Source: Candidatus Omnitrophota bacterium
Lineage (GTDB): Bacteria > Omnitrophota > Gorgyraeia > Gygaellales > Profunditerraquicolaceae
Reading direction: 5' to 3'
DNA: 64,000 nt
Assembly (NCBI GenBank): GCA_041308845.1
Contig: JBFZAT010000011.1
Coordinates: 9,540 to 73,539 of the forward strand
Shown here: in pieces, positions 20,548-40,896 of the stretch
How the letters are laid out: each line of letters opens with the position of its first letter
How positions within the stretch are numbered: the first letter of the stretch is position 1
Translations under genes and position numbers: made by a program
Notes under the pieces: generated by a model
Told to the model about the DNA's origin: nothing
Seen by the model: only the letters and a program-made list of their open reading frames with translations
Database searches by the model: none

Positions 20548-20563
20548 GAAGGTAGAATTAAGA

Positions 20564-21967: not shown

Positions 21968-21972
21968 ATAAT

Positions 21973-23818: not shown

Positions 23819-25297
23819 ATGGCAAGTAAACTAGAGGGGCTTGAGATGAGCAGAAGTGCTTGTGATAAAAACATGGTATTGCTTATTGTCTTTATTTTTG
23901 CTTTTATTGTATTTTCTTCCTGGCTCACTTTTAATAAGTTTGAGCACAATATGTGGGACGGCCATGATCAAGGAGCGTATTGTCAAATGTTATGGACCAC
24001 TATGCATGGAAAATTATTCTGGTGTAGCGTAACCGGAATTAATGGAGCCTGTGACCTAGCGATACATATGAATGTTTTGATGTTTTTGTTAATTCCTGTT
24101 TATTGGATTTTTAATTTTCCCGTTACGCTTAACATTATCCAGGTGCTTTATCTTGGTATAGCAGCTATCCCGGTTTATCTTATCGCTAAAGAAAAAATGA
24201 GTAGTAAGGTAGGCCTGTTGTTTGCTGTTTTCTATCTTACCAATAATTTTACGATACAATCAATAATTGAAGGTTTTCAACCCAGGAGCATGGCTGTTCC
24301 GCTTTCGCTATTTGGATTTTATTTCCTCATCAAAAATAAATACTTTCTTACTAGTTTATTTATGTGTCTATTAGCCCTTTCCCAGGAGTCAAACAGCATG
24401 TTATTAATTACCTTCGGTATTTACATAATTTTGATTCAAAGACAAATATTACTCGGAGCGCTCATTTCATTTTTTGGTCTGGGATGGTTCATGCTTACAA
24501 TAAACATATTACAGCCCCATTTTGGTGTTTCCAACCCGTTAGGGGTTTTACAATTTGACGCGGCAGGAACAATTTTAGTTTCACCGCTCGAGATTATTCG
24601 CTATTTTATCTTTCATCCAATAGAATTTTTTCAGCGGGCGCTTTCTTATCCGAAGCTGGATTATTTTGTTAGATTGTTTGCGCCATTAGCCTTCCTGTCT
24701 TTATTTAGCTTAAAAGAACTTTTAATCGCTCTGCCGGTTTTTTTACAGAACTTTATTCTCGGTGGAGACCGTTTTATTAGACCTGAAAACCCCAGGCATA
24801 CAATGCCGTTACTTCCTTTTATCTTAATCTCGGCGATTTATTCGGCCAGCTATTTTTATAGTAAACCAAAGTTACGCTGGAAATATATCTGGGTCTTCTT
24901 AGTAATTTGCTGGGGAATATCCACATACAAATTTGTTTGGGATTATAACTATAACCAGCGTTTTTTAAAAGCTTTGGCCCCCGTGACCCAAGAAGAGAAA
25001 ATTCATAGGCAAGCATTAAGGAAAATTGTAAAACTTGTCCCTGCAGACGCAAGTATCTGCGGCGATTTAAAAGCATTTCCCTTTCTGGCCAATCGTTTCA
25101 CTTTTTACGATATCCCCTTTCATATAGAAGATACCGACTATGTTTTAATTGATACTAAAGATCCTAATTTTTCTGCGAAACCAATAAAATCAAGAGAAGA
25201 GTGTCTTGAAATTATAGCAGAAACTTTACGCTCCACCGATTATACGGTTATTAAAGAGGAAGATGGCCTAGTCCTCTTAAAAAGAATAATTAGATAG
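23819..25297 (+). CDS. DUF2079-family integral membrane protein (GT-C-like), paralog B2
   Basis: WDGHDQGAYCQMLWTTMHGKLFWCSVTG...IAAIPVYLIAKEK...FYLTNNFTIQSIIEGFQPRS, near-identical blocks to 16543..18051. Confidence 0.55.
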   Translation: MASKLEGLEMSRSACDKNMVLLIVFIFAFIVFSSWLTFNKFEHNMWDGHDQGAYCQMLWTTMHGKLFWCSVTGINGACDLAIHMNVLMFLLIPVYWIFNFPVTLNIIQVLYLGIAAIPVYLIAKEKMSSKVGLLFAVFYLTNNFTIQSIIEGFQPRSMAVPLSLFGFYFLIKNKYFLTSLFMCLLALSQESNSMLLITFGIYIILIQRQILLGALISFFGLGWFMLTINILQPHFGVSNPLGVLQFDAAGTILVSPLEIIRYFIFHPIEFFQRALSYPKLDYFVRLFAPLAFLSLFSLKELLIALPVFLQNFILGGDRFIRPENPRHTMPLLPFILISAIYSASYFYSKPKLRWKYIWVFLVICWGISTYKFVWDYNYNQRFLKALAPVTQEEKIHRQALRKIVKLVPADASICGDLKAFPFLANRFTFYDIPFHIEDTDYVLIDTKDPNFSAKPIKSREECLEIIAETLRSTDYTVIKEEDGLVLLKRIIR

Positions 25298-25633: not shown

Positions 25634-26150
25634 AAAGGAATTTAAGATAATTACCTTGAGCCCTCAGGAGAACAGATATATTGAATCGTTTAACGGCAAA
25701 TTATGGGATGAATTGTTGAGCAGAGAGATCTTTGAAACATGCGTGAGGGCGAGGTTTTGGAGCTTAAGTGGCAGGATATTGACATTAGGAGAAATATAAC
25801 TACCCATATGGCACTAAGAACGTAGAGAAACGAGAGGTTCCTATGGATGAAGTTGTCCAGAAGGTTATTATAGGCGTTCTTAAACATCCAGATTCGTAAT
25901 ATATCTTCTGCAACAATGATGAAAACCATATTGAGATATTAATAAATCATTCTTTACAGCTGTTAAGAAAGCGGGTATAATTGACTTCCGCATACATAGT
26001 CTTCGCCATACTTTATTTCGTATTTGGTGATGTCTGGCGTTGGCTTTAATGCGATGAGAGAATTGTTAAGGCACAAGTTACCGTAATGACTCTATGGCAT
26101 AGCCATTTAAAAACGAGCGGTTGATGTTTTAGGACAGCGGGTAGTCTTCG
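25634..26150 (+). pseudogene. Degraded mobile-element remnants: DDE transposase (rve) C-terminal fragment plus frameshifted phage-type tyrosine integrase
   Basis: Translation of 25634-25739 gives ...SPQENRYIESFNGKLWDELLSREIFET, the conserved rve-family C-terminal motif. Downstream frames give ELKWQDIDI..., REVPMDEVVQKVI, IDFRIHSLRHTLF and ELLRHKLP, which are integrase box I/II-like. They are interrupted by stops and frameshifts. Confidence 0.6.
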
Positions 26151-26233: not shown

Positions 26234-26310
26234 TGGGCGATTAGCTCAGTTGGTTAGAGCGTCTGATTTACATTCAGAAGGTCAGGGGTTCAACTCCTCT
26301 ATCGCCCACC
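26234..26310 (+). tRNA. tRNA-Val (anticodon TAC), CCA encoded
   Basis: GGGCGAT...ATCGCCC acceptor, D-arm AGCTCAGTTGGTTAGAGC, anticodon stem TCTGA/TCAGA with loop TTTACAT, T-loop GGTTCAACTCC, terminal ACCA. Confidence 0.8.
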
Positions 26311-26386
26311 ATTAAATACTTAATAAATAGTAGACTTTTTTGAGATAAGAAAGTATAATAAGTTCCAAAAATTTTCAATAGGTTTT

Positions 26387-26465
26387 GGGGTCGTAGCTTA
26401 GCCTGGCTTAAAGCGCCTCCCTGTCACGGAGGAGATCGCGAGTCCGAATCTCGTCGGCCCCGCCA
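26387..26465 (+). tRNA. tRNA-Asp (anticodon GTC), CCA encoded
   Basis: Acceptor GGGGTCG/CGGCCCC (one G-U pair), anticodon stem CCTCC/GGAGG with loop CTGTCAC, T-arm GCGAG-TCCGAAT-CTCGT, terminal GCCA. Confidence 0.7.
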
Positions 26466-26473
26466 GTAATCTA

Positions 26474-26505
26474 AACGCCATAATTAACTTATGGCGTTTT
26501 TATTT
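26474..26505 (+). terminator. Rho-independent terminator after the tRNA pair
   Basis: Perfect 10-bp stem AACGCCATAA/TTATGGCGTT with a 5-nt loop, followed by TTTTTATTT. Confidence 0.7.
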
Positions 26506-26663: not shown

Positions 26664-27389
26664 GTGAAGACTTATGTTCTTATTCCGACGTTCAATGAGA
26701 TTGAGAACATCGTAAGATTAATAAACGAAATTCTGGATTTAGGCATCGAAGGCCTATATATTCTTATCGTAGATGATGATTCTCCTGATGGTACCGGGAA
26801 ATTGACCCAGGAGTTATTCAAAAATGATTCCCGAGTTGAGGTGATGATTAGAGCCGGCCAGCGCGGTAGAGGAGAGGCCGGGGTATTCGGGTTCCGGCAG
26901 GCTTTAAATAAAGGAGCAGATTATATTATTGAAATGGACGCTGATTTTTCCCATCAGCCTAGGCATATCCCGCAATTTCTAGCGGCAATAAAGCAAAATG
27001 ATGTAGTTATAGGGTCGCGTTTTATACTCGGAGGGGAGGATCGCGACCGGGGTTGGCTTCGGCAAACCATTACGAAACTAGCCGGAGTTTACACAAGATC
27101 AATCTTGGGCTTAAGAATACACGATGTATCTTCGGGTTTTCGCTGTTTTAGAAAAGCAGCGTTAGAAAAGGTTGATTTAAGCAGTTTGGTTTCTACGGGG
27201 CCTTCTATTGTTTTAGAATTACTGTATAGGATTATTTTAAGCGGAGCTCGAGTTAAGGAGATACCGATTATTTTTGCCGATAGGAGGCAAGGTAAAACCA
27301 AATTGAAATATGTTATTCTATTTGAAACCTTGATTATGGTATTAAGGTTAAAAAAGCTGAAGGGCACAAAACAGTTACTCAAGCAATGA
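26664..27389 (+). CDS. GT2 polyprenol-phosphate sugar synthase (DPM1/ArnC-like), short form
   Basis: VLIPTFNEIENI...LYILIVDDDSPDGT...IEMDADFSH; GT2 DxD architecture, 241 aa, GTG start. Confidence 0.7.
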   Translation: MKTYVLIPTFNEIENIVRLINEILDLGIEGLYILIVDDDSPDGTGKLTQELFKNDSRVEVMIRAGQRGRGEAGVFGFRQALNKGADYIIEMDADFSHQPRHIPQFLAAIKQNDVVIGSRFILGGEDRDRGWLRQTITKLAGVYTRSILGLRIHDVSSGFRCFRKAALEKVDLSSLVSTGPSIVLELLYRIILSGARVKEIPIIFADRRQGKTKLKYVILFETLIMVLRLKKLKGTKQLLKQ

Positions 27390-27426
27390 TCTTTTAGGAT
27401 AGTTTTGCCCACAAGTTAATTAAAAA

Positions 27427-29052
27427 ATGCAAACCCGAATTAATAGTTTATTAAAGTTTTTGGTGGGGTGCTTGACCATCCAACGGGTTGTTTTTGTATT
27501 GATCTTAATATATTTTTTGCTAGCCGCTTTGACCGGAATTACCACTTTAGGCTTAAGCCATGATGAAGGGCAAAGAGGGTTAGAAACTATAGAGATACTC
27601 GAATTTAAACATTTCCCCCTGATGAGAGAATTCTACTGCGGGGCAGTAATCTCCTATCTACAAATTCCATTATTTTTAATCTTCGGCGCTACGGTATTTG
27701 CCATTAGGTTTACCCAGGTCATCTTTTCATTGGGGAGTATTGTTTGTCTTTATTATGTGGGGCAAAGATGGTTCAACCATTATATAGGTCTTCTTGCCGC
27801 CTTACTGTTGAGCTTAAATCCTGTTTTTATCTGGGCGACCAGATTGGGAGCAGAAAGAGAAGAAATACTCCAGATTTTTCTTTTTTGGTTGGGCTTAGCG
27901 TTAGTCCAACTTTACCTAGATAAAAAAAGAAAAAAGTATTTATACTCTGGTTTTTTTACCTTCGGGTTGGCTTTAAGCGCAAAAATCATGTTTTTAGGAT
28001 ATGCCCTGGGGATGATTGCTACTTTACTTTTTATGGGTAAACCGGCCGCTAATTTTATTAAAAATAAAATCTTTTATAAAAAATATACATTATTAGTTTC
28101 CGGAATAATGTTTTTAGCCGGTAGCTCCTTAGTTATCATTTACAATATCGCCTCCGGAGGCCAAACAATAACTAAATTATGGAACAGTTTATTTATTAAG
28201 GGCGCCGGAGCAGTGCGCGGGGCTAATTTTGGCATTAATAACTTGGATTTTATTAATAATCTTGCCCACAGATTATCGGACTTTAAGTCACTGGTCACCG
28301 GTGGGATTTTTAGTAATTACCATAATTTTTTTAATCTGGTAATTTTGGGTTTTTCTTTATTAATAGTTATAGGTTATTTACTGCTCACTAAACAAAAACT
28401 GTTATCCCAAAAGAAAATTATTTTTTTACTGGGGACCTACTTTTTTTTATTTTTGGGGACCTCCTTTACGCCTAGAGAGTATGACCACGCAAACATTATA
28501 ATTTTGCTGCCGGTAACCCAGATTATCGTAGCGATCGCAATATTTTCTTTAAAAAACATCTTGGCAAAAAATGTATTATTATCAATGCTCGTTCCCCTCT
28601 GTGCCTTATTACCGCTAGTTTCCAATGAAGTCGGCGCCTATGGCCGTTATTTACTTACTTTGGAAAACACTGGCGGTAGAGGCCAATCTGCTTGTGCGGT
28701 ATATGAGCTGGTGGATTATATTAATAGAAATAATATTAAGAAAAATGTATTTTCGGTAGGAGAATGGGGGCCAATCGGAAATGTTAATTTTCTGCTCAAG
28801 CGCAGAGTGGTTCTGCCACTTCCTTATTTTCGGTATTGGCAGGAAGAACCGGATATAAAATTTGAAACTTTTATTAAACAGTACCCGAAAGCTTATTTTA
28901 TCAGGGTGATTGGTTTTGATTCCGAAAACGGCAACTGCGATTTTAAGTTCCTTTCGGAATCGGCATTGAGAAAAAATAAGAAAATATCTGAAGTGAGGGT
29001 ATTTAAGAACCGGGCAGGCGAGGCCTGCTACGGGCTTTATCAATTAGAGTAA
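27427..29052 (+). CDS. GT-C-fold membrane glycosyltransferase (ArnT/PMT-like, polyprenol-P-sugar dependent), paralog C1
   Basis: Polytopic; LSHDEGQRG first-loop motif, REEILQIFLFW, conserved C-terminal globular region; paralog of 32935..34584. Confidence 0.55.
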   Translation: MQTRINSLLKFLVGCLTIQRVVFVLILIYFLLAALTGITTLGLSHDEGQRGLETIEILEFKHFPLMREFYCGAVISYLQIPLFLIFGATVFAIRFTQVIFSLGSIVCLYYVGQRWFNHYIGLLAALLLSLNPVFIWATRLGAEREEILQIFLFWLGLALVQLYLDKKRKKYLYSGFFTFGLALSAKIMFLGYALGMIATLLFMGKPAANFIKNKIFYKKYTLLVSGIMFLAGSSLVIIYNIASGGQTITKLWNSLFIKGAGAVRGANFGINNLDFINNLAHRLSDFKSLVTGGIFSNYHNFFNLVILGFSLLIVIGYLLLTKQKLLSQKKIIFLLGTYFFLFLGTSFTPREYDHANIIILLPVTQIIVAIAIFSLKNILAKNVLLSMLVPLCALLPLVSNEVGAYGRYLLTLENTGGRGQSACAVYELVDYINRNNIKKNVFSVGEWGPIGNVNFLLKRRVVLPLPYFRYWQEEPDIKFETFIKQYPKAYFIRVIGFDSENGNCDFKFLSESALRKNKKISEVRVFKNRAGEACYGLYQLE

Positions 29053-29091
29053 TCCGTTAAGAATATTGAAAGATATCGCCGCAGGGGGAGC

Positions 29092-30555
29092 TTGATGGCA
29101 GAGTTAAAGAATAAAAAAATCCTTCTCATTTTTCCTGACAACAGCCCATTTCCTTACCATATCGCCACGCCGCTAAATATTTTCTGCTTGGGAACGTATT
29201 TAAACAACCAAGGTTATCAAGTGTTTTACTATGATGAACGGGTGGAATCCTTAAAGCAGCTTTATGCCAGGCTGGAGGAGAAGCCGTTTCTGGTGGGCTT
29301 AACTACGATGACCTCGCATCAAATCAAGCGTGCTATTGCTATCGCTGCCAGGATTAAAAAAGTTTTTCCCCGTATACCGCTGGTTTGGGGAGGTGTTCAT
29401 CCTAGCATGTGTCCGGAACAGACCTTGAAATCAGATTGGGTGGATTTTGTAATTATCGGCGAAGGGGAAGAAACTCTGCTAGCTTTAGCCGATAAGCTTC
29501 AAGAAGGAATTCAAGATTTTAGCCAAATAGCAGGTTTAGCTTGGAAAAAAGGCAGTGCAATCCATATAAATCAGCAGAGAGAATTTATGGATATAGAGAC
29601 ATTGCCGTTTCCCTATCCAGACCAGGCAGCCAGTAGGCTTGCTTTATATCTTAAACATGAGACTACTCTACCGGTAGTCGGTTATCAGCTTTCCCGGGGG
29701 TGCCGTTTCCGGTGCCGTTTTTGTTACAGCACTTTTTTCCATAAGGGGATCTGCAGGACAAAAAGCAAAGAAAAGATTAAAGATGAGCTGACAAAAATTC
29801 AAGGTTTGGGCGTAAAGAAAATAATTTTTTATGATGATAGCCTGGGGCCGGACAGGCAGATGTTATACGCATTAACCGAAATTATGGGCGGGCTTAAAAT
29901 GCGTTGGACTGCTTCCCCGCGCCTAGAATTTTTCGATCAAGATTTGTTGGAAAGATTTCAAGAGAGCGGTTGTGAACATTTATGTTTTGGCATTGAATCG
30001 TTTTCAGATGAGAGGCTGGGTTATCTGGGTAAAGGGCTTACTCGGAAGCAGATTTTAGCCGGGGTTAAAGTTATGGCCCAGGCTCAAAACCGAGTTACTT
30101 ATCTATTGATGTTTGGCTTTCCCGATGAATCCGTCGAGGATTTAAAAGAAATGTTGGATTTCGTTGATGAACTAAGACGGTTGCATAAAAATGCCGAGGT
30201 CGCCTTGCAGCCATATGCTCCGTTTCCGGGTACGCCGCTTTATGAGCAGGCGGTAAAAAATGGATTTCAGCCTCCCCTTCAACTAGCAGGCTGGAGCAGA
30301 TTTACCATGGATGACGTGCACACCCCTTGGGTTAAGAATAAGGCCCAGTTAAGAAACTTATATTTAATTTCATTTATGGCTTTTAGGTATGATTGGTTGC
30401 TTAGTGGGTTTAAGTTAAAATATTTTTATTATTTACTGCACAAAATAGCGCTTTGGAGATGGAAAAAAAGATTTTTTGGCTTTTGTGTTGAGTCTTGGTT
30501 ATATCGGCAGTATAAAAGAGCCTGGATTATTTATCAAAAAATAACCAAAGGTTAA
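29092..30555 (+). CDS. B12-binding-domain radical SAM enzyme (class B), third paralog
   Basis: N-terminal B12-like Rossmann domain (KKILLIFPDN...VGLTTMTSH...LVWGGVHPS) and LSRGCRFRCRFCYS. Confidence 0.75.
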   Translation: MMAELKNKKILLIFPDNSPFPYHIATPLNIFCLGTYLNNQGYQVFYYDERVESLKQLYARLEEKPFLVGLTTMTSHQIKRAIAIAARIKKVFPRIPLVWGGVHPSMCPEQTLKSDWVDFVIIGEGEETLLALADKLQEGIQDFSQIAGLAWKKGSAIHINQQREFMDIETLPFPYPDQAASRLALYLKHETTLPVVGYQLSRGCRFRCRFCYSTFFHKGICRTKSKEKIKDELTKIQGLGVKKIIFYDDSLGPDRQMLYALTEIMGGLKMRWTASPRLEFFDQDLLERFQESGCEHLCFGIESFSDERLGYLGKGLTRKQILAGVKVMAQAQNRVTYLLMFGFPDESVEDLKEMLDFVDELRRLHKNAEVALQPYAPFPGTPLYEQAVKNGFQPPLQLAGWSRFTMDDVHTPWVKNKAQLRNLYLISFMAFRYDWLLSGFKLKYFYYLLHKIALWRWKKRFFGFCVESWLYRQYKRAWIIYQKITKG

Positions 30556-31562
30556 TTAAGTGGCTTTTTAGTGCTATCCGGTAAGAGCATTCTTAAAACC
30601 CCGCAAATAAAGCCTATACCGATAGTCAGATGCATGAGGTGTACAGCAAGGTAAACTCTTCCTGTAAAAAACAGGCCTTCCTTTAAATAAACATAGCGCA
30701 GGAATTTTATTTCTAATAAAAATTGGGAAAAAAGCATTACCAGGGAAATAATCAAAAGATTATAATGCAGGAAAGAGCATAAAAAGCAACTTATGCCCCA
30801 GAAAGAAAAAACAGCAGATAAGCTCTCTTGGGCAGTGGCCAAGGCGCCCGGGGATTCGAATTTTATTCTTTTTATAAATACGGGGGCCCAGGTGGCGCTT
30901 CTGGTTAATAGTGTTTTTAGACGTTGTGGGAAATTTTTACACCGGCGTTCAAATTGGATGTTTTGCAGGATAACGTTCCGGTAAACATTAGATAGCCGAT
31001 GGCCGAATTCATATTCTTCAATGCCGGCCCCTTTAAAACTTGGATTAAATCCTCCTAACTGTTTAAAAGCCTTTGTTCTAATTGCTCCGCATTGGGATTG
31101 GAAAATCGTATAATTTCTATAAACTTCGTTTTTTATCCACCGGTAATAGTAATATGTTCTTAAGGAGATAAACTTTGCGCCAAAGGTTTCAGAACAGTAC
31201 TTAGGCGACATCGTACAAGCAATAGCGGTAATTTCCTGTTTTTGGTTAAAAAATTCCCAGATCTGATCCAAGGTATCCTTTTTAATGAATACGTCAGCAT
31301 CAATAAATAACAGAATGTCTCCTTGGGCTTTTTCTGCGCCATCATTGCGAGAAGCTGCAGCGCCTCGGTTTAGCGCATGTTTTATAATTTTTACCGGGAA
31401 GTTATGAGCGATTTCAGCAGTCGCATCTTGGCTGCAGTCTTCCACTACGATCACTTCAAAATCTTTAAAATCCGAGGCAAAAACTGCTTTAAGGCAGTCT
31501 TTCAGGGTATCTGCAGCATTAAAGGCCGGGACGATTATAGAAATTTTAAAGTTATCAGGCAT
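30552..31562 (-). CDS. GT2 glycosyltransferase with C-terminal membrane anchor
   Basis: ISIIVPAFNAADTL...FEVIVVEDCSQDAT...LFIDADV (DxD), C-terminal hydrophobic helices. It is the only minus-strand gene in the island. Confidence 0.7.
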   Translation of the reverse strand: MPDNFKISIIVPAFNAADTLKDCLKAVFASDFKDFEVIVVEDCSQDATAEIAHNFPVKIIKHALNRGAAASRNDGAEKAQGDILLFIDADVFIKKDTLDQIWEFFNQKQEITAIACTMSPKYCSETFGAKFISLRTYYYYRWIKNEVYRNYTIFQSQCGAIRTKAFKQLGGFNPSFKGAGIEEYEFGHRLSNVYRNVILQNIQFERRCKNFPQRLKTLLTRSATWAPVFIKRIKFESPGALATAQESLSAVFSFWGISCFLCSFLHYNLLIISLVMLFSQFLLEIKFLRYVYLKEGLFFTGRVYLAVHLMHLTIGIGFICGVLRMLLPDSTKKPLN

Positions 31563-31760
31563 AGTCTAGTTAGTTGGTTTATAGAAACTCTGGGCTTTTA
31601 TTATTCTCCATATTCAGCTAGTTTTCAAGTGAAATTTAAGCATATATTTTATAAATGTTTTTAGAGTAGGGTTGAAATGCCGATTGTAAAATATATACAC
31701 TACAGCTATAATAAAACTAAAGTTTACCTCGGAAGAGATATGAGCTAGAGTAAAAGCTAA

Positions 31761-32900
31761 ATGAATTTGATATTGGACCTTTGTAAAAAATTCAAGCGCC
31801 AACTTATTAATATTAAGACTCTCAAGGCAGTGTCTGTGCGCGGTTATTTGCTGCATCTATTCGGTTCTCTGCGTCTGATTTTTAACGGGCAGAAAGCGAT
31901 CTTCCCGCTTAACATTACGCTAGATTTGACTTATGATTGTAATCTTCTTTGTGAATTTTGTTTCTTGAATTTTCTGCCAAATTTTAGAAAGGAGAACAAA
32001 GGGGAGTTGTTAGGCTTCGAGGAAATCTCCGGCCTGATTAAATCGATAGGTACAAAAAATACATCATTTCTTTTAACCGGAGGTGAGCCGTTATTGAGGA
32101 AAGATTTGCTCAAGATTATAAATACGATTAACCAAAGCGGTTTTCATTGCGGTTTATTCACTAACGCTACCCTGCTTAGTCCGGATATTTCCGAAAAAAT
32201 AATTGCAGCTGGCTTAAGCTATTTGCTCTTCTCTCTAGACGGGCCAGAAAAAATTCATGATGCATTACGGGGTGTGCCTGGAAGCTTTAAGAAAACCTAC
32301 GGAAATATCGAGTATTTAATTAACAAACGAAAGAATTCCACACCGCGCGTAATTATGAACAGCTTAATTTTAGATAAAAATCAGTCAGGTTTATTAGAAA
32401 TGGTGGACATCGCAAAGGGCTTAAAGGTTGATTGTATTGCCTTTGATTTTTTGACTTTTCTTACTACCGATGACTTCGAAGCTCACCGTGTTAATTTTAA
32501 TAATTTTTCTCCCCAGGATAATTTCAAAAGTTTGGTTTTAGTCAAAGATTTTAAAAACGCAGATTTTCAGGATTTGACCAAAAAGATTGAAGCCGTAAAA
32601 AAATATGCCCGCAGTCAAAAAGTAAGGATCTTCTTTAAACCGGATTTAAGTAAAAAAGAATTACAGGGATGGTTTAAACAGGGATTTAGATTTATCCGTA
32701 GATGCATCTACCCCTGGAATGTGATGAGAGTGTCTCCTTACGGAGACGTTTATCCTTGCGCCGCTTTTTATATTAAGATGGGTAATATCCGGCAGACTCC
32801 GGTCGGGGAGCTTTGGAATAATCGGAAATTTAGAGATTTTCGCAAGTTGCTCCGGGGCAGAAATCAGCTCTCTGGATGCAACCGCTGTGTGAAGTTATAA
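31761..32900 (+). CDS. Radical SAM protein with Cys-rich C-terminus (SPASM/twitch-like)
   Basis: LTYDCNLLCEFCF (CxxxCxxC), TGGEPLL, C-terminal CAAFY...CNRC cysteines. Confidence 0.7.
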   Translation: MNLILDLCKKFKRQLINIKTLKAVSVRGYLLHLFGSLRLIFNGQKAIFPLNITLDLTYDCNLLCEFCFLNFLPNFRKENKGELLGFEEISGLIKSIGTKNTSFLLTGGEPLLRKDLLKIINTINQSGFHCGLFTNATLLSPDISEKIIAAGLSYLLFSLDGPEKIHDALRGVPGSFKKTYGNIEYLINKRKNSTPRVIMNSLILDKNQSGLLEMVDIAKGLKVDCIAFDFLTFLTTDDFEAHRVNFNNFSPQDNFKSLVLVKDFKNADFQDLTKKIEAVKKYARSQKVRIFFKPDLSKKELQGWFKQGFRFIRRCIYPWNVMRVSPYGDVYPCAAFYIKMGNIRQTPVGELWNNRKFRDFRKLLRGRNQLSGCNRCVKL

Positions 32901-32934
32901 AATTAAGGTTTAAGAAATTAGCCAGTGGAGTTCG

Positions 32935-34584
32935 ATGCTCATGGCAGTAAAAGAAAGATTAATTCTCTATTTAATCGCGTTACTATTTTTGATTTTAGCG
33001 CTGCCTAATTTAAATTATCCGGGGTTAAGCATCGATGAAGCCGGAGACGGGATTGTGAGTGGGTATATTTTTAAGAATTTACCTGCGGAGAGTAAAAACT
33101 TATCAAGCATTATTGGGGCCGATAGGGTTGTTCTATTCAATAAGTTAATCCCGATTATGACCGGAGAATATCATGCTTCGGTTAATTCTTATATAATCTT
33201 GCCGTTTTTACGCTTTTTCGGTTTTAATGTATTTGCCCTCCGTTTGGCTTCGCTTTTGATTGCCCTGTTTTCCGTATTTTTAATCTATTTTGTTTGTAAG
33301 ATTTGGTTTAGTCGCAGAATAGCCTGGGTGGTTAGCTTATTGTCTGCCAGCAATTTAGGTTTTGTTCAATATAGCCGAGTGGGTTTATTCCGGGAAGAAA
33401 TATTTATAATCTTTTTTTTCTGGATTACTATTTTTCTGTTTTTGAAATATTTTGAACAAAAGAAGCTCGGGTTTGTTTACGCCGGTTTTTATTGTTTGGG
33501 TTTAGGTGTAAGTAATAAAGTTACATTTCTTTGGTATGCGGCCGGCCTGCTGCTGGCTTATTTTTCTTTGAGAAGGAAACTCGGCCTTTCGTTATTGCTT
33601 AGCCTAAAGCAGAAATTAATCTGTTTAACCGGGTTTTGTTTAGGTTCGGTTTTTTTGATAATTTATAATGTTAGACAACCGGGGATAAGCTTTAGAATAC
33701 TGCTGCAGTCTTTATTTTTCTATCCGGTAATCAAAAACAATACGCAAATTAGTAATTTGCACTATTGGGAAAATTTAAAAATAAGAATTTCGCATTTAAT
33801 CATGTTTCTGAAAGAAAATATTACCGAACGCTGTGATTGGGGTGTTCAGCAGGCAGGCTGGCTTGAACACTGGTCTTTTATGATTATGCTTTTGAGCGTA
33901 ATAACTTTTAGCGGGACGTTAATCTGCGTATTATTATCCAAAAATCATCAGCAGAAATATCGGATATTATTTTTTTATGTTGTATTTATAACGGTATTTG
34001 CTTTAACGCCATTTACGGTGAGCGGATTTGACCCGGGGCACCTTTTAGTTTTATTTCCCTTTACCCAGATTGTATTGGCTTTATTTTTAGATTATATTTG
34101 GCAATCCGCTGGCCAGCATAAGAAGTTTATCGCGGCAGTTTATCCTGTTTTTTTAATACCGGTGTTGACATTTCATATTTTGATGAATATTCACTTCCAT
34201 CAAGCAATGCGGGAAAACGGCGGGTATCGGAGATGGTCAACGGCTATCTACGAATTGGCCGATTACTTGGATAAAAACAAGATTCAGCCGGTAACTTTTG
34301 GCTGGGGTTTAAAAGAAAACCTGGCTTTTTTGACCGATCAGAGGGTAGTGCCTATACAATTTGACGAATTTAATTTTTCGCAAGCAGCACTGATTAAAGA
34401 ATATGACCGTTTAGCGGTTAAAAAAGAGCCGTTTTTCTATCTGACCATGATGGCTGAGGAGAATACTTCTTTTTTAGAGCTTTTTATGAATTTGGCGGCA
34501 GAAGACGGAAAAAATAAAGTATTAGAAAAGATATTTTTTAATCAGGCTGGTGATCAGGTTTACTGGTTGTATAAAATTTATTAG
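32935..34584 (+). CDS. GT-C-fold membrane glycosyltransferase (ArnT/PMT-like), paralog C2
   Basis: LSIDEAGDG, REEIFIIFFFW and AIYELADYLDKNKI blocks align with 27427..29052. Confidence 0.55.
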   Translation: MLMAVKERLILYLIALLFLILALPNLNYPGLSIDEAGDGIVSGYIFKNLPAESKNLSSIIGADRVVLFNKLIPIMTGEYHASVNSYIILPFLRFFGFNVFALRLASLLIALFSVFLIYFVCKIWFSRRIAWVVSLLSASNLGFVQYSRVGLFREEIFIIFFFWITIFLFLKYFEQKKLGFVYAGFYCLGLGVSNKVTFLWYAAGLLLAYFSLRRKLGLSLLLSLKQKLICLTGFCLGSVFLIIYNVRQPGISFRILLQSLFFYPVIKNNTQISNLHYWENLKIRISHLIMFLKENITERCDWGVQQAGWLEHWSFMIMLLSVITFSGTLICVLLSKNHQQKYRILFFYVVFITVFALTPFTVSGFDPGHLLVLFPFTQIVLALFLDYIWQSAGQHKKFIAAVYPVFLIPVLTFHILMNIHFHQAMRENGGYRRWSTAIYELADYLDKNKIQPVTFGWGLKENLAFLTDQRVVPIQFDEFNFSQAALIKEYDRLAVKKEPFFYLTMMAEENTSFLELFMNLAAEDGKNKVLEKIFFNQAGDQVYWLYKIY

Positions 34585-34598
34585 GGTGCAATGCTAAA

Positions 34599-35519
34599 AT
34601 GATCGAAATTTCAGTTGTGGTGCCGATTCTCAACGAAGAGGGGAGCCTGCGGCTTTTAAACGGTGCTTTGTGTCGGGTGCTAGAAGAAAGCGGGAAAAAG
34701 TTCGAGGTCGTTTTTGTTGATGACGGCAGTACTGATAGTAGTTTTGCCATTTTGTCGCAATTAGCCCAGCATGACCATCGGCTGAAGGTAATTAAATTTA
34801 CTAAAAATTTTGGCCAAACCCCAGCGATTGCCGCTGGAGTTCGTTATGCCCAGGGGCGAATTATTATATTGATGGACGGAGATTTACAGAATGACCCTGC
34901 CGATATACCTGGTTTATTGTATAAATTAGATGACGGTTTCGATGTTGCTAGCGGATGGCGTAGAAAACGCCAGGATCCTTTTTTATCGAAAAGAATACCT
35001 TCTTATCTGGCCAACAAATTAATTTCCCTGTTGACCGGCATAAAGCTTCATGATTTCGGTTGTACCTTTAAGGCTTACCGTAGTGAGGTGATTAAAGAGA
35101 TCCGGTTGCAAGGTGAAATGCATCGGTTTTTGCCGGTTTTTGCTGTCCGGGCCGGCTACCGAGTTAGCGAAGTGGAGGTGGCCCATTCTAAGCGGTCACA
35201 GGGAAAGTCTAAATATGGGTTAAACCGGATTTTGAAAGTCCTACTGGACCTACCCGGATTAGTATTTTTGCACAATTATTCTATCAGGCCTAATTACATC
35301 TTTGGCGGGTGGGGGCTATTTTTGATTTTTATTGCCATTCTATTTTTCTTAGGTGCTGTTTTGTTTCATATCTTACGTGGCATTCTGCTTTCAGGTATTA
35401 TTCTGGCGATCGGGATCCAGTTGGTTATACTGGGTTTAGTTATTGAAATGTTCACCCGGGTATATAATGACATTACTTCCAAGCAGCCGTATATAATTAA
35501 AACCTTAATCAATTTTTAA
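34599..35519 (+). CDS. GT2 polyprenol-phosphate glycosyltransferase (ArnC/GtrB-like) with two C-terminal TM helices
   Basis: VVVPILNEEGSL...VVFVDDGSTDSS...ILMDGDLQNDP, C-terminal hydrophobic pair; paralog of 26664..27389. Confidence 0.75.
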   Translation: MIEISVVVPILNEEGSLRLLNGALCRVLEESGKKFEVVFVDDGSTDSSFAILSQLAQHDHRLKVIKFTKNFGQTPAIAAGVRYAQGRIIILMDGDLQNDPADIPGLLYKLDDGFDVASGWRRKRQDPFLSKRIPSYLANKLISLLTGIKLHDFGCTFKAYRSEVIKEIRLQGEMHRFLPVFAVRAGYRVSEVEVAHSKRSQGKSKYGLNRILKVLLDLPGLVFLHNYSIRPNYIFGGWGLFLIFIAILFFLGAVLFHILRGILLSGIILAIGIQLVILGLVIEMFTRVYNDITSKQPYIIKTLINF

Positions 35520-35542
35520 TAAAAGAAAGGCTGAGCTGTTAG

Positions 35543-37438
35543 ATGTGTGGTATTTGTGGTATTGTTGCGACTAATCGAACAAGCCCGATCAAGCGGGAAG
35601 ACTTTCAGTCTATGGTGAATGTTTTATATCATCGTGGTCCCGATGATCAAGGAGTTTTTTTTGACCATAACATAGCCTTAGGCCTGAGGCGTTTAAGCGT
35701 AATTGATTTAAAGACAGGGCACCAGCCGATGCCTAACGAAAATAAAACCCTGTGGATTGTTTTTAACGGTATGATTTATAATTATTTAGAATTACGACGG
35801 CATTTAGAAGCTAAGGGTTATTTTTTCCGCACCCAGAGCGACACCGAGGTTATTCTCCATCTTTATGAAGAATATGGGGCAGATTGTGTCTTGTGGTTAA
35901 ATGGGATGTTTGCTTTTGCCATTTGGGAAGCTAAGCAACAAAAACTGTTTCTTGCCCGAGACCGTTTAGGCGTAAAACCTTTGTATTATACTAGTTTTGG
36001 CGGATATTTCCTTTTTGCCTCCGAAATCAAAGCGTTATTAAAGTTTCCTGGGATAAAAAAAGAGATGAACCTGCGTTCTGTATCAGAGTATTTGGCTTTG
36101 GAATATGTTCCCACGGCGGATTCGATGTTTGAAGATATCAAAAAATTGCTGCCGGCGCACACTTTAATTTATGCCCATGGGCAGCTTTCTGTTCAGCGCT
36201 ATTGGGATATCGTTATCCACCAAAATTGCCCCGCAAAAAATAATTTGGATGAGGCGCTTAGCCGGTTGTCGGAGTTGCTTAAAGATGCGGTAAGAATTAG
36301 GTTGATTAGCGATGTGCCGGTAGGCGTATTTTTAAGCGGGGGATTGGATTCTAGCCTAGTGACTGCCCTTTGTGGGTCTCTTGGCAGTAGTAAAATTAAA
36401 ACTTTTTCTATAGGTTTTGACAAACCATCCTTTGATGAAAGTCATTTTTCCCGGCGAGTCGCTGGTTATTTCCATACCCAACATTATGAAAAGATGTGCA
36501 CCCATCGAGAAGTGCTGAATCTTATACCGGCATTAGTTGAGTCTTTAGATGAACCCTTCGCGGATGCCTCAATCCTGCCAACTTATCTTTTATCTAAATT
36601 TGCTAAGGAACAAATTACGGTAGCTTTAAGCGGTGACGGAGGCGATGAATTATTTGCCGGATACTCTACTTATATTGCCCATCGCATCGCAAATTATTTT
36701 TCCTTGTTGCCTGCCGCAGTCAGCCGGGGGATGCTTGGTTTGGCTAAATGGATGCTGCCCGTATCGATGCAGTATATGAGTTTTGATTTCCGTTTTAAGA
36801 AATTCTTTGCCCACTTGCATAACCCCGCTTATATCCGTCACCATCTTTGGCTGGGATCGTTTTCTCCTCAGGAACAAAAACAACTATTTTGCCCCTGGGT
36901 CAACGCCGGGCTGAACAATTATGATATCTTTAATGCCTCTCAGAACCATTTCTATAAGCTTAATAACGGTAAACTTTTGGATCAGTTACAATATTTAGAC
37001 CTGCAGACTTATCTTCCGGGCATTGGTTTAGCTAGAGTTGATGCTGCCAGCATGGCTAATTCACTAGAAGTACGTTCTCCGTTTTTGGATTACCGTTTAA
37101 TGGAATTTGTTTTAAACTTACCCCAGAAATTTAGACTTCATCATTTTACCCGAAAATATATTTTGAAAAAATACGCTCAACAGATGATCCCTAAAAGAAT
37201 TATTCATCGGTATAAAAAAGGTTTCGGGGTGCCCGTCTCCTTATGGATTGGCAGAGAACTGAAAAATTTTGTTTTGGAGATATTATCCGAAGAAAATATA
37301 AACCGCCAGGGCCTTTTTCATTATCCCTATATAAAAAGGCTCCTGGAGGAACATTTTAACCGGCAAGTGGATAATCATAAAAAAATTTGGACGCTTTTAA
37401 TGTTTGAGCTGTGGCGGAAAAAGATTTGGCCAGCTTAA
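35543..37438 (+). CDS. asnB: Asparagine synthetase B-family glutamine-dependent amidotransferase (AsnB, or WbpS-like glycan amidotransferase)
   Basis: MCGICGIV N-terminal nucleophile Cys, SGGLDSS PP-loop, 631 aa. Confidence 0.8.
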   Translation: MCGICGIVATNRTSPIKREDFQSMVNVLYHRGPDDQGVFFDHNIALGLRRLSVIDLKTGHQPMPNENKTLWIVFNGMIYNYLELRRHLEAKGYFFRTQSDTEVILHLYEEYGADCVLWLNGMFAFAIWEAKQQKLFLARDRLGVKPLYYTSFGGYFLFASEIKALLKFPGIKKEMNLRSVSEYLALEYVPTADSMFEDIKKLLPAHTLIYAHGQLSVQRYWDIVIHQNCPAKNNLDEALSRLSELLKDAVRIRLISDVPVGVFLSGGLDSSLVTALCGSLGSSKIKTFSIGFDKPSFDESHFSRRVAGYFHTQHYEKMCTHREVLNLIPALVESLDEPFADASILPTYLLSKFAKEQITVALSGDGGDELFAGYSTYIAHRIANYFSLLPAAVSRGMLGLAKWMLPVSMQYMSFDFRFKKFFAHLHNPAYIRHHLWLGSFSPQEQKQLFCPWVNAGLNNYDIFNASQNHFYKLNNGKLLDQLQYLDLQTYLPGIGLARVDAASMANSLEVRSPFLDYRLMEFVLNLPQKFRLHHFTRKYILKKYAQQMIPKRIIHRYKKGFGVPVSLWIGRELKNFVLEILSEENINRQGLFHYPYIKRLLEEHFNRQVDNHKKIWTLLMFELWRKKIWPA

Positions 37439-37561: not shown

Positions 37562-39076
37562 ATGCCTAAAAAGAGCTGTATTTTGTTAATTTTGGCCCTA
37601 AGTTTTACCTCTTTGGCACAGAGTTATGAGTTGGTCAACACTGACCAACTAACAGTACAGCTGGATACCTATCTGCGCACAGATTTAGTTACTTTTAAAA
37701 ATGTTGTGGATCTAGATCGGCGTAATCATGATGATCAGGTAACTTATTACGGGCTGGATTATAGTTTTGCTTTCAGCGCCGATTTTAAAAATTCAGGAAA
37801 TAAGATTTACCTTAAAGTTGAACGCAATGGCCCTTATGATTATAGCGCTCCGCTTTTCGTCCATAATACATTGGTTACTTCCGGTGGAAGCATTGAGGGT
37901 TACCGTAACCAAGAATTGCTGCCGCAAGTGGAAGAATTTTGGCTGGATAATAAGTTCTGGGGTGATTTTGGGCTTAAGACCGGTTTGTATATTTATGCAG
38001 TAGGCAATGGTTTCAGTTTAAACGGCGGATATGAGAATTACGGAGTGACTTTATACCGGCAAGCGGAAAACAGCTTTGGGCGTTTGTATTATTGCCGGCC
38101 GGATTTAGTGTATAAAAATCGTTTAGGCCCGCATGTGCAGCAGGAAGAAGATCAGGGGGAAGAGTACGAAACGAATGCGGCTAATTTTTTTGCCGCAGAT
38201 ATTAAAATTTCCGCGGGTCCGCAAACCTTTTGGCCTTATGTCGGAGTATTAGCTGATTATACTTCTGCCGGCAAAAGGGATAATTTTTATGCTGCTTTGG
38301 TAAAAAGGGATTTATTGGGTACATTTGGCGTTGCCTGGGAATATGCAGCAGAAAGTTTTACCTTTAAATTAGAAGCGGCGCGTAATTTTGGGTATGCGCA
38401 AAGCCAAAATAGTGATTATAAGGATATTCAACACACCGGCTATCTGGTTTACTCCGGGATTAACTATGTTTTAGGTAAATTTATCCCGGAATTACATTTT
38501 TTATTCTGTTCGGGGAATAATGCTACTTTGGATCTGGCCGGCAAATCCGATGAGCCGTATGTTTCGGGGAAGAACCGGGCTTTTAGTTATTCTTCAGTGA
38601 CCAACCGGAATTTAAGCGATACGGTCAGCAGCAGCAATGTTGATATGTTGCCAATTGTGGCGATGGGCGGCGGGTATGGTTTAAATTACGGCGTACCCCG
38701 GCCGGGGACATTTTCATCAGCCGATTTCGATAATTTGATTTTACCGGTTATCGGTTTTACTTATAATTTTACAGATAAACTTTGCCTAAGCTTATACGGA
38801 TATTATCTAAGGGCGGCGAGCCGGCCGGTAGGGAGGTTAAACGGGCAAGGCAGGTATCTTGCCCGGGAATTAGGGACAGAGGCGGATTTGTTTATCGACT
38901 ACCAAATTACAAAAAATATTAACTTAGGTTTTTTAGGTGGATGTTTTTTCCCAGGAAAATATTATAAAGAAGAGCGCGATGATTATGACGGCAGCATATT
39001 TAGCCCCTATGTGCGAGGAGATGGCCGCGCGGACAATGCTTATCAGCTTGAATTCTATGTAGAGTTGAAGTTTTAA
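37562..39076 (+). CDS. Secreted outer-membrane beta-barrel candidate (porin-like)
   Basis: Signal peptide MPKKSCILLILALSFTSLAQS, many alternating aromatic/Gly strands, C-terminal ...YVELKF ending in Phe, which is typical of OM beta-barrels. Confidence 0.5.
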   Translation: MPKKSCILLILALSFTSLAQSYELVNTDQLTVQLDTYLRTDLVTFKNVVDLDRRNHDDQVTYYGLDYSFAFSADFKNSGNKIYLKVERNGPYDYSAPLFVHNTLVTSGGSIEGYRNQELLPQVEEFWLDNKFWGDFGLKTGLYIYAVGNGFSLNGGYENYGVTLYRQAENSFGRLYYCRPDLVYKNRLGPHVQQEEDQGEEYETNAANFFAADIKISAGPQTFWPYVGVLADYTSAGKRDNFYAALVKRDLLGTFGVAWEYAAESFTFKLEAARNFGYAQSQNSDYKDIQHTGYLVYSGINYVLGKFIPELHFLFCSGNNATLDLAGKSDEPYVSGKNRAFSYSSVTNRNLSDTVSSSNVDMLPIVAMGGGYGLNYGVPRPGTFSSADFDNLILPVIGFTYNFTDKLCLSLYGYYLRAASRPVGRLNGQGRYLARELGTEADLFIDYQITKNINLGFLGGCFFPGKYYKEERDDYDGSIFSPYVRGDGRADNAYQLEFYVELKF

Positions 39077-39498: not shown

Positions 39499-40004
39499 TA
39501 AAACAGTTTGTCCCGCAGGAGTTCTGTCTGAAATGCCGAGGATGCTGCCGGTTTAAAGAAGAAAATTCCGTTTGGAGCCCTTGTCTTTTAGATGAGGAGA
39601 TTCAAAAGTTACTTGAAAAAAAAGGAATTCCGGTTGCCTTGATTTCCATTGATCGCCGGATACAGCCGGTCGTAAACCCTCAAGGGGAAAATTTTATTTG
39701 CCCGTTTTTAAAAATACAAGATAATTACTGTCAGATTTATGATCTGCGGCCGTTTGAATGCCAACTGTACCCTTTCTTGATTAATTTGCGTAATGGCAAG
39801 GTTTTGTTAACGGTAGATTTAAATTGCCCTTATGTCTATGAGCAAATTAATAGCCAGTTGGCCAAAGATTATATTGCTTATTTGACAAGTTATCTTAATT
39901 CAGCACCGTTACGGCGGATGCTCAAAGATAATCCTCAGATTATTCAGGCTTATGAAGAAGTGAGAGAAGTCGCGGAGTTAGGCTTGCCTGATGAAACTAA
40001 ATAA
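39495..40004 (+). CDS. YkgJ-family CxxCxxCC (putative Fe-S/Zn) domain protein
   Basis: CLKCRGCCRF near the N-terminus plus additional Cys (CPF, CQ, CPY); 169 aa; overlaps both neighbours. Confidence 0.5.
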   Translation: MIKQFVPQEFCLKCRGCCRFKEENSVWSPCLLDEEIQKLLEKKGIPVALISIDRRIQPVVNPQGENFICPFLKIQDNYCQIYDLRPFECQLYPFLINLRNGKVLLTVDLNCPYVYEQINSQLAKDYIAYLTSYLNSAPLRRMLKDNPQIIQAYEEVREVAELGLPDETK

Positions 40005-40896
40005 ACTATCTTTAGACAATCAAGGGTTATTTAAGCGCTACTTGGGTCGCTTTCCTTGTGAATTAGCGGCATATTCTTTTGCCAATATCTATCTTTGGCA
40101 ACCGCTTTATAATGTTCATTGGGCAGTTAGCGAGGATAGTTTATGCGTATTTTTCCGCGATCGATTAGGTTGTTTTATGTATCTGCCCCCCTTAACGACA
40201 GCTCCGACTGCGCAGCTTATCCAACAAGTTTTTGCCGTGATGGACAAAGTTAATAAAAATCAGAATATTTCGCGCATCGAAAATATCCAAGCTCATCAAT
40301 TAGACTATTTTCGTTCTCTAGGGTATTTATGTTATGAGAAATATCCGGATTATTTGTGCCTGCGCAGCGATTTAGCGAATTTGAGGGGCAACCAATTTAA
40401 ATCTCAACGTGCCGCTTATAATTATTTTATCAAACACTACGACTATAAGCTCGCCCGTTTAGCATTGACCGATCAGCAGGAATGTTTAAGTTTGTTTGCT
40501 GCCTGGGCGCAAGAACGAAAAGCCAGACGTAATGATGATGTCTATTGTGGTATGCTTGAAGATAATCGTAGAATAATCCGGGAGGTTTTCGCTGATTACC
40601 AAAAATTGCGCTTGATAGGATTGGTGGTTAGATTGAACAATGAAATTAAGGCTTTTAGTTTCGGCTATCAACTTAATGCTGATACCTTTTGCATACTTTA
40701 TGAAATCACGGATTTATCGGCGAAAGGGTTAGCCCAGTTTATTTTCAGACGGTTTAGCCAGGAGTTAAAAAAATACAAATTTATCAATATAATGGATGAT
40801 TCTGGCCTGGAAAATTTACGCAGGAGTAAATTAGCTTATCACCCTCAGCGTTTAATTCCAGCTTATATCGCGATTAGGGATGAACGAAAATATTGA
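39991..40896 (+). CDS. DUF2156-family protein (homologous to the MprF/LysPGS C-terminal aminoacyl-tRNA transferase domain)
   Basis: AAYSFANIYLW, DYLCLRSDLANLRGNQFKSQRAAYNYF, AFSFGYQLNADTFCILYEITD..KGL fit the DUF2156 consensus; ~300 aa. Confidence 0.55.
   Translation: MKLNKLSLDNQGLFKRYLGRFPCELAAYSFANIYLWQPLYNVHWAVSEDSLCVFFRDRLGCFMYLPPLTTAPTAQLIQQVFAVMDKVNKNQNISRIENIQAHQLDYFRSLGYLCYEKYPDYLCLRSDLANLRGNQFKSQRAAYNYFIKHYDYKLARLALTDQQECLSLFAAWAQERKARRNDDVYCGMLEDNRRIIREVFADYQKLRLIGLVVRLNNEIKAFSFGYQLNADTFCILYEITDLSAKGLAQFIFRRFSQELKKYKFINIMDDSGLENLRRSKLAYHPQRLIPAYIAIRDERKY

Follow-up and report, generated by a model that had tools for sequence, protein, structure and literature searches.

Conserved linkage of radical SAM and glycosyltransferase genes in a putative glycosylation island of a Candidatus Omnitrophota assembly

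What would hold genes for radical S-adenosylmethionine (SAM) enzymes and genes for membrane glycosyltransferases (GTs) together in one bacterial gene cluster? The question is raised by a stretch of 64,000 nucleotides from contig JBFZAT010000011.1 (positions 9,540 to 73,539, forward strand) of assembly GCA_041308845.1, Candidatus Omnitrophota bacterium; this whole stretch is referred to below as the window, and all positions follow its own numbering. A putative cell-envelope glycosylation island of ~24 kb spans 15064-39076, and its right half, module 2, combines two radical SAM genes with three genes for family 2 glycosyltransferases (GT2), two for GT-C enzymes and one for an AsnB-family amidotransferase. 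Genome comparison establishes, as far as sequence can, that three couplings between radical SAM and GT2 genes have been conserved in different lineages, two of them also occurring as fused genes. No description of a tie between radical SAM genes and lipid-sugar GT2 or GT-C genes was found in the literature searched.

An initial annotation had listed eight open reading frames (ORFs) in module 2; all eight, with their domains, were recovered at exactly the following coordinates (Pfam, every assignment above the gathering score; aa, amino acids):

26664-27389, plus strand: GT2A, 241 aa, GT2 (PF00535, 100 bits)
27427-29052, plus strand: GT-C1, 541 aa, PMT_2 (GT-C)
29092-30555, plus strand: B12c, 487 aa, B12-binding (PF02310, 69 bits) and Radical_SAM (PF04055, 79 bits)
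30552-31562, minus strand: GT2anti, 336 aa, PF00535/PF10111/PF13641/PF13506 (GT2, Glyco_tranf_2_2, Glyco_tranf_2_3, GT21)
31761-32900, plus strand: SPASM2, 379 aa, Radical_SAM and SPASM (PF13186, 55 bits)
32935-34584, plus strand: GT-C2, 549 aa, PMT_2 (36 bits)
34599-35519, plus strand: GT2B, 306 aa, GT2 (PF00535, 118 bits)
35543-37438, plus strand: AsnB, 631 aa, GATase_7 and Asn_synthase (331 bits)

Radical SAM genes and their glycosyltransferase partners

The initial annotation described module 2 as duplicated GT2/GT-C pairs laid out around other enzymes. Judged from related loci, a division into three conserved units describes it better: GT2A with GT-C1 (unit A), B12c with GT2anti (unit B), and SPASM2 with GT-C2 and GT2B (unit C), GT2anti being the core partner of B12c. 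The minus-strand GT2 gene had also been called divergent, which is true relative to the SPASM2 gene only; with B12c it is convergent, and the two genes overlap by 4 bp. Same-strand gaps within units A and C are 14-39 bp long, those between GT2 and GT-C genes 14-37 bp.

Orthologs of SPASM2 (45-71% identity) have a PMT_2-type GT-C gene adjacent or one gene away in 7/7 distinct arrangements, the window included:

Window
L003/L008, Omnitrophota chromosome
L004/L010, Omnitrophota
L005/L006/L007
L009/L011
L012, Omnitrophota
L013, Desulfobacterales

A GT2 gene lies beside or near the SPASM2 ortholog in six of the seven arrangements (L012 is the exception; in L004 it is in the same cluster), and the best solved relatives of these GT2s, where checked, are ArnC, GtrB and DPMS. 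The Desulfobacterales locus repeats the triad of the window, with SPASM, ArnC-like GT2 and GT-C in that order. As an internal control we used ~50 loci with distant SPASM proteins (25-29% identity, mostly Acidobacteriota) from the same scan, none of which has a GT2, GT-C or B12-binding radical SAM neighbor detectable with hidden Markov models (HMMs).

The B12c orthogroup comprises ~48 clusters (41-50% identity). Its members have a GT2anti-type GT2 as neighbor or fusion partner in all eight informative contexts, and these partners are 316-334 aa long, match the same Pfam profile and carry C-terminal transmembrane (TM) helices:

Window: convergent, 4-bp overlap
L091/92, L117, L173 and L174: adjacent
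L089/90: one gene apart
L087/88: GT2::B12-radical SAM fusion (P0306), 817 aa
L094: GT2::B12-radical SAM fusion, 806-aa ORF

P0306 shares 27% identity with GT2anti in its N-terminal part (E 8e-43, TM region included) and 45% with B12c in its C-terminal part. A fusion in the opposite order, independent of these, occurs in L005, the closest foreign cassette, in which the SPASM ortholog is 57% identical and the last gene encodes an AsnB. Here a 752-aa protein joins an N-terminal B12-binding radical SAM part (28% identity to B12c) to a C-terminal DPM1-like GT2 part (38% identity to GT2A, E 1e-49). In addition, a GT2A ortholog in L111 (51% identity) has genes for a GT-C-like protein and a B12-binding radical SAM enzyme on its two sides. 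As a looser comparison only, we considered 78 loci with more distant B12-binding radical SAM relatives, mostly paralogs of ~30% identity from metagenomes; among the matches listed, a GT2 was present in 27/78 and directly adjacent in 12/78.

Three of the related loci have further features of their own. The L012 contig (1-17702; Omnitrophota metagenome-assembled genome [MAG] JAZDHG010000109) shows an extreme expansion, with seven genes for B12-binding radical SAM enzymes within 17.7 kb and, interspersed among them, the SPASM2 ortholog, a PMT_2 GT-C gene and a gene for a polytopic membrane protein without Pfam match. In L174 (3701-17434), the B12c ortholog and its GT2 partner are accompanied by three more B12-binding radical SAM genes, a DegT aminotransferase gene and a gene for an 867-aa STT3-type oligosaccharyltransferase; the cluster adjoins RuBisCO-like and IF-2B-like genes and may be an N-glycosylation locus of an archaeon or a member of the candidate phyla radiation. 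L004 (2178-5227; Omnitrophota JBAZKC010000001) has genes for a GT2, a YdjC-family deacetylase and a B12-binding radical SAM enzyme in HpnI-HpnK-HpnJ order, inside the GT-C/SPASM cassette and with a Wzy_C gene nearby.

Enzymes encoded in module 2

Both plus-strand GT2 enzymes are nearest to polyprenyl-phosphate sugar synthases, as the initial annotation had proposed, and not to processive enzymes. GT2A has a DAD motif (EMDAD) and no TM helix, and its residues 1-235 align with residues 23-252 of Pyrococcus DPMS (5mlz), its best solved relative (E 1e-32). GT2B has a DGD motif (MDGDL) and a hydrophobic stretch at 231-289 that corresponds to a C-terminal TM hairpin; its residues 3-304 align with residues 9-314 of ArnC (E 4e-48), and the match to GtrB sll0501 is full length (E 2e-34; both PDB). 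For both proteins, homology to solved members runs past the GT-A core into the interface-helix region. Their top NCBIfam matches are AglJ, dolichyl-phosphate-hexose transferase, PpgS, PgfS and ArnC, the ArnC model being matched by GT2B over residues 3-304. Neither protein reaches a curated equivalog cut-off in NCBIfam (for GT2B, ArnC 180 bits against 529 and PgfS 152 against 500; AglJ 75 against 325; PpgS 52 against 370). GT2A appears to be a DPM1/DPMS-type polyprenyl-phosphate hexose synthase-like and GT2B an ArnC/GtrB-type polyprenyl-phosphate sugar synthase-like enzyme, each to be regarded as a superfamily relative and not as an ortholog of any named enzyme. Processive enzymes of the cellulose/chitin-synthase type were rejected for both, PgaC and NodC aligning with the N-terminal core only (30-55 bits). 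GT2anti is also a GT-A-type GT2 with a DAD motif, but membrane-anchored; it has TM-like segments at 247-328, and only its GT-A core resembles any solved structure.

The duplication seen in the initial annotation is genuine as paralogy, the similarity being far beyond chance for both pairs: GT-C1 and GT-C2 share 27% identity over 496 columns (E 6e-40), reaching through the C-terminal domain, and GT2A and GT2B 26% over 215 columns (E 2e-15). The motifs quoted in its support are all present in the translations (LSHDEGQRG and LSIDEAGDG, REEILQIFLFW and REEIFIIFFFW, VYELVDYINRNNI and IYELADYLDKNKI; also LSRGCRFRCRFCYS). The copies are old, however, and the two GT2s differ in architecture (241 aa without a TM helix vs. 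306 aa with a C-terminal hydrophobic hairpin) as well as in subfamily. Because protein identity is only 26-27% and no DNA-level repeat joining the copies was found, we consider them ancient paralogs and not the product of a recent duplication. The placement of GT2A and GT2B in different subfamilies fits two different lipid-linked donor sugars; to this extent, the order of transfer apart, it agrees with the earlier suggestion that two sugars are transferred in sequence.

GT-C1 has a multi-TM core and a C-terminal alpha/beta domain of ~130 aa, with the acidic pair D46-E47 after TM1; in GT-C2 the corresponding D-E motif lies within LSIDEAGDG. Neither protein has a sequence match in the PDB even at E 1. 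A word-indexed search returned five relatives, while an exhaustive profile search returned 677 cluster representatives at E<=1e-30, mostly full-length matches. An AlphaFold model of GT-C1, built on an alignment of 77 of these 677, has a pLDDT of 91.6 and a pTM of 0.92. In Foldseek comparisons ArnT ranks first (TM-score 0.57-0.59), followed by oligosaccharyltransferases (PglB, AglB), DPY19, ALG, Emb and PMT proteins, with ALG12, Pmt4 and AglB scoring about as well as ArnT. D46 is conserved in 69/77 and E47 in 74/77 sequences, and in the model the pair sits between helix 8-35 (TM1) and a juxtamembrane helix (45-58). The model thus assigns GT-C1 a GT-C fold, with a polytopic TM core and a predicted periplasmic domain. 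The label "ArnT-like" is fair for fold, size and mechanism class, and the ArnT-like acidic residues in the first periplasmic loop, named as a check in the initial annotation, are there; as a statement of family membership it fails, and ArnT orthology was rejected given the absence of a sequence match and the about equal closeness of other GT-C structures. A public protein 100% identical to GT-C1 (P0001, 526 aa) is annotated from a start at 27472, 15 codons downstream of the ATG used here (27427).

B12c and SPASM2 are, as initially annotated, the third B12-binding and the second SPASM-type radical SAM enzyme of the island. The CX3CX2C motif of B12c (C204/C208/C211) is invariant in 42 orthologs, and its domain composition marks it as a class B (cobalamin-dependent) radical SAM enzyme. 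Class B enzymes usually methylate unactivated carbons and also catalyze rearrangements. B12c reaches no NCBIfam equivalog cut-off: ApyD (124 bits) and HpnJ (TIGR03471, second-best match, 113 bits vs. a cut-off of 578) are both far below. Membership in the hopanoid HpnI/HpnJ pair was rejected on this score and on the lack of a GT2anti match to HpnI (TIGR03472) at E<=0.001. SPASM2 carries its CX3CX2C motif at C60/C64/C67, behind a conserved N-terminal extension of 45 aa. The full seven-cysteine SPASM motif is absent from SPASM2; there are only four C-terminal cysteines (C315, C333, C373, C376), all invariant in the orthogroup, which suffice for one auxiliary cluster in a twitch-like arrangement. 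BtrN, a carbohydrate dehydrogenase, is a twitch enzyme with one auxiliary cluster. SPASM2 likewise reaches no NCBIfam equivalog, the best being AhbD (111 bits vs. a cut-off of 500). An anti-phage defense role (PADLOC) was rejected, the similarity being generic (pVip 64 bits, PDC-M51A 42 bits).

AsnB has an N-terminal Cys2 nucleophile (MCGICG) and an SGGLDSS PP-loop. It passes TIGR01536 (522 bits vs. a cut-off of 267) and so belongs to the asparagine synthase B family. Its best model, matched over the full length, is TIGR03108 for the XrtA/PEP-CTERM exopolysaccharide (EPS) amidotransferase, where its 627 bits fall short of the 817-bit cut-off. The 64-kb window contains no second asnB. Since the best-scoring model is EPS-associated and an AsnB also ends the L005 cassette, AsnB looks like cassette cargo.

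The island, its borders and neighboring genes

The remaining features of the island are as follows:

15064-25297, plus strand: module 1, with unk482, DUF2079, SPASM-type radical SAM, two B12-binding radical SAM enzymes, unk526 and DUF2079 (Pfam)
25656-26100, plus strand: mobile-element debris between the modules, just upstream of both tRNAs (motif recognition only, no HMM)
26235-26311, plus strand: tRNA-Val (TAC), left boundary of module 2 (ARAGORN)
26387-26465, plus strand: tRNA-Asp (GTC) (ARAGORN)
26473-26499: terminator-like hairpin with an 11-bp stem, 3' of tRNA-Asp (terminator scan)
37562-39076, plus strand: orphan secreted protein, 504 aa, last island gene

GC content is 0.32-0.41 in the island and 0.42-0.47 outside it. 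Pyrimidine-biosynthesis genes and a V-type ATPase operon lie to its left; to its right are a gene for a tRNA-binding-domain protein (PF01588) and DNA-repair and other housekeeping genes. The closest named homologs of the window proteins come from Omnitrophota MAGs, and the host is a diderm bacterium, probably of this group. Three-frame translations and short ORFs of the debris contain what is left of a DDE-transposase C-terminus (…SPQENRYIESFNGKLWDELLSREIF…), together with frameshifted pieces of a tyrosine recombinase (…LELKWQDIDIRRN…, …RIHSLRHTLF…, …MRELLRHK…). These remains suggest that integration took place here in the past. At the island boundaries, a search for att-like direct repeats of the tRNA 3' ends found none. 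Promoter-like sites were no more common in our scan than in shuffled sequence, and terminator-like sites, ~70% more common than in shuffles, fall mostly within coding sequences and do not delimit transcription units.

In module 1, which contains one SPASM-type and two B12-binding radical SAM enzymes, every protein class is paralogous within the module or to module 2 (all-vs-all BLASTP identities: unk482/unk526, 26%; DUF2079a/DUF2079b, 54%; SPASM1/SPASM2, 24%; B12a/B12b, 41%; B12c vs. B12a and B12b, 28-29%). According to TM profiles, its polytopic proteins comprise two DUF2079 proteins and two that cannot be assigned. The latter, unk482 (15064-16512) and unk526 (21973-23553), are paralogs with a C-terminal soluble domain, an Asp-containing motif after TM1 and an 'FG.NP..Y' motif; neither Pfam, searched up to E 10, nor the PDB gave a match for them, and they may be unclassified GT-C-like enzymes. 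The DUF2079 pair (16543-18051, 23819-25297) is the most recent duplication in the island, with a 56-nt stretch that is 82% identical (16973 / 24228); DUF2079 was not mentioned in the literature searched. The 504-aa orphan has a signal-peptide-like N-terminus and ends in …ELKF. It has no Pfam match even at E 10, no PDB sequence match and no homolog in any related locus fetched; possibly it is an outer-membrane beta-barrel.

Several genes to the right of the island also drew attention. A pair of adjacent D-Ala-D-Ala-ligase-like ATP-grasp genes precedes a lysine-2,3-aminomutase-like radical SAM gene with a LAM_C domain (47478-50656), and the three may form a beta-amino-acid ligation cassette. An N-terminal PilZ domain and a weak alpha-mannanase-like region (GH76) occur together in a 645-aa protein (41775-43712). 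A stand-alone LPG_synthase_C (DUF2156) protein (39991-40896) and a PAC2 (proteasome-assembly-chaperone family) protein (45485-46474) are encoded in what is apparently a bacterial genome.

A proposed glycosylation route, its rivals and known systems

Textbooks describe a scheme in which polyprenyl-phosphate sugars are the donors for glycosylation on the periplasmic face (Arn, Gtr, CsbB/YfhO, mycobacterial PPM, DPA). Tailoring while the sugar is lipid-linked occurs within it: ArnD deformylates Und-P-Ara4FN, and DprE1/E2 epimerize decaprenyl-phosphate-ribose. To our knowledge, such hydrolytic or redox steps (ArnD, DprE1/E2) are the only known tailoring of a lipid-linked sugar in this scheme. From the gene content we propose, as a reading with about an even chance of being right, that the island would likewise serve periplasmic-face glycosylation from polyprenyl-phosphate sugars, here first tailored by cytoplasmic radical SAM enzymes. 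At the cytoplasmic face, GT2 enzymes would use a nucleotide sugar as donor and load its monosaccharide onto polyprenyl phosphate. Cytoplasmic radical SAM enzymes would tailor the lipid-linked sugar, with C-methylation or rearrangement as the likely chemistry of the class B enzyme and oxidation, epimerization or a similar step as that of SPASM2, with its single auxiliary cluster. The tailored sugar would be flipped across the membrane and passed by the GT-C enzymes to a periplasmic-face acceptor, which could be lipopolysaccharide (LPS), another glycan or a protein, and AsnB would amidate a carboxylate, either on the glycan or on a precursor. The polyprenyl-phosphate acceptor, the lipid-linked substrates and chemistry of the radical SAM enzymes, the flipping step, the final acceptor and the AsnB substrate are the parts that we infer. 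The more specific claim that the cobalamin-dependent and SPASM/twitch enzymes act directly on polyprenyl-phosphate monosaccharides, giving C-methylated, rearranged or oxidized donors for GT-C transfer at the surface, is offered tentatively and is in our view rather doubtful. Tailoring of a sugar already attached to a lipid has a radical SAM precedent in the ring contraction catalyzed by HpnJ and Cds (PMC13459092); polyprenyl and undecaprenyl substrates are unmentioned in a 2026 review of lipid-modifying radical SAM enzymes (PMC13459092).

The polyprenyl-phosphate-sugar/GT-C logic and the idea of unusual tailoring, both present in the initial annotation, hold as far as in silico tests reach. 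Several points nevertheless weigh against the proposed route. The evidence for it is genomic only. The 64-kb window yielded no flippase gene (GtrA, ArnE/F or Wzx type). Since no radical SAM enzyme reaches a curated equivalog cut-off, the chemistry assigned to them is a guess. The membership of GT2anti in the polyprenyl-phosphate subclass is not demonstrable: its profile-profile alignment with the ArnC-like family covers the core only, ending at column 171, and its AlphaFold2 model (pLDDT 45) is unusable. In L091/92, L094 and L173 the B12c/GT2anti pair or fusion stands among housekeeping genes (near those for a CCA-adding enzyme and MutL) with no GT-C gene nearby, so that its product need not feed a GT-C enzyme. 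The ortholog contexts, finally, are few (7-8 for each family) and all come from MAGs, where mis-binning is possible.

The rival that survives best, although we think it unlikely, is a generic polysaccharide or O-antigen cassette, in which nucleotide sugars or the completed glycan, and not polyprenyl-phosphate monosaccharides, would be the substrates of the radical SAM enzymes while GT2 and GT-C enzymes work as initially annotated. Related clusters do encode nucleotide-sugar enzymes (DegT aminotransferases, epimerases/dehydratases) as well as Wzy_C, and the sugar-modifying radical SAM enzymes GenK, BtrN and DesII use soluble substrates. According to a 2026 preprint, hypervariable polysaccharide cassettes are a general feature of Omnitrophota chromosomes. 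The window itself, however, holds no nucleotide-sugar modification genes, and the specific partners of its radical SAM families, by linkage or by fusion, are membrane-associated GT2s and GT-Cs and not enzymes acting on nucleotide sugars.

Unlikely too is that B12c and GT2anti form an autonomous glycolipid head-group unit, the GT2 glycosylating a membrane lipid, the radical SAM enzyme rearranging or methylating the sugar, as in HpnI/HpnJ and the Cds pathway, and the GT-C enzymes not being supplied by the unit. The stand-alone pairs noted above and the single fused gene in L087 would be expected of such a unit; GT2anti matches GT21, the Pfam family of ceramide glucosyltransferases, and has C-terminal TM helices; and HpnJ ranks second among the NCBIfam matches of B12c, with the Hpn gene order kept in L004. 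The scores of the Hpn models speak against it, as does the location of the pair inside glycosylation clusters with PMT_2-type GT-C or STT3 genes in the window, L089 and L174.

We consider it very improbable that the radical SAM enzymes mature a peptide or protein resembling a ribosomally synthesized and post-translationally modified peptide (RiPP), to be O-glycosylated by the PMT-like GT-C enzymes. SPASM and class B enzymes often serve as RiPP maturases, the top NCBIfam matches of B12c include ApyD and rSAM_ocin_1, proteins are substrates of PMT_2 enzymes, and TPR domains occur in some of the related GT-Cs. Yet no conserved small ORF was seen near the radical SAM genes in the window or the related loci, small ORFs not being rigorously excludable; the N-terminal extension of SPASM2 is below the size of a RiPP recognition element; and the conserved partners of the radical SAM enzymes are GT2s, up to gene fusion. 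Coincidental co-location of unrelated paralog expansions in a variable region, for which one could cite the mobile-element debris, the lower GC of the island and the low adjacency at distant B12-binding radical SAM loci, is largely refuted by two independent gene fusions, by linkage in 8/8 and 7/7 ortholog contexts across phylum-level bins and by an empty distant-homolog control, and we give it next to no credence.

If the proposed route is correct, radical chemistry would be added to the polyprenyl-phosphate glycosylation scheme; should the more specific claim of direct action on polyprenyl-phosphate monosaccharides hold, the GT2::B12-radical SAM and B12-radical SAM::GT2 fusions would mark an undescribed, phylogenetically widespread branch of envelope glycobiology. 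Unusual surface sugars (C-methylated, carbocyclic) would be predicted in Omnitrophota and other uncultured lineages, for whose epibiotic or predatory lifestyle the surface is central. A function would also be suggested for many unannotated class B radical SAM genes that adjoin glycosyltransferase genes, and the fusion proteins would be simple, directly testable targets.

Known systems share parts of this arrangement. The AsnB of XrtA/PEP-CTERM EPS loci (TIGR03108) is the top model for the window AsnB and also lies within a glycan cluster; the score here is under the cut-off, and the window has no exosortase or PEP-CTERM genes. WbpS-type O-antigen amidotransferases, brought up in the initial annotation, may be a further parallel. 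DPM1/DPMS and mycobacterial Ppm1, which work with PMT/Alg-type GT-C enzymes, differ in that identity to characterized members is low and the present genes form a bacterial island with radical SAM partners. In the HpnI-HpnK-HpnJ pathway and archaeal Cds, a GT2 first attaches a sugar to a membrane lipid, where a radical SAM enzyme goes on to rearrange it (PMC13459092; PMC12324291); here the HpnI and HpnJ models are not reached, the window has no hopanoid genes and the pair stands alongside GT-Cs. O-antigen glucosylation by GtrA/GtrB/GtrC and teichoic-acid glycosylation by CsbB/GtcA/YfhO follow the same logic of a GT2 with a polytopic GT-C; GT2B matches the GtrB structure, and the related cluster L005 includes a YfhO-type GT-C. 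The window differs from them in that no GtrA/GtcA flippase was found in it, in its radical SAM and AsnB genes, and in having two GT2/GT-C sets plus a third GT2. From the Arn pathway it differs in lacking ArnA/B/D/E/F genes, in the sub-threshold ArnC score of GT2B and in GT-Cs without a sequence match to ArnT, and tailoring would here be by radical SAM enzymes. The likeness lies in the scheme itself, in which a GT2 makes the polyprenyl-phosphate sugar, ArnD tailors the lipid-linked sugar before flipping and a GT-C transfers it in the periplasm, and in the proteins, GT2B being similar to ArnC over its full length and ArnT being among the best structural matches of GT-C1.

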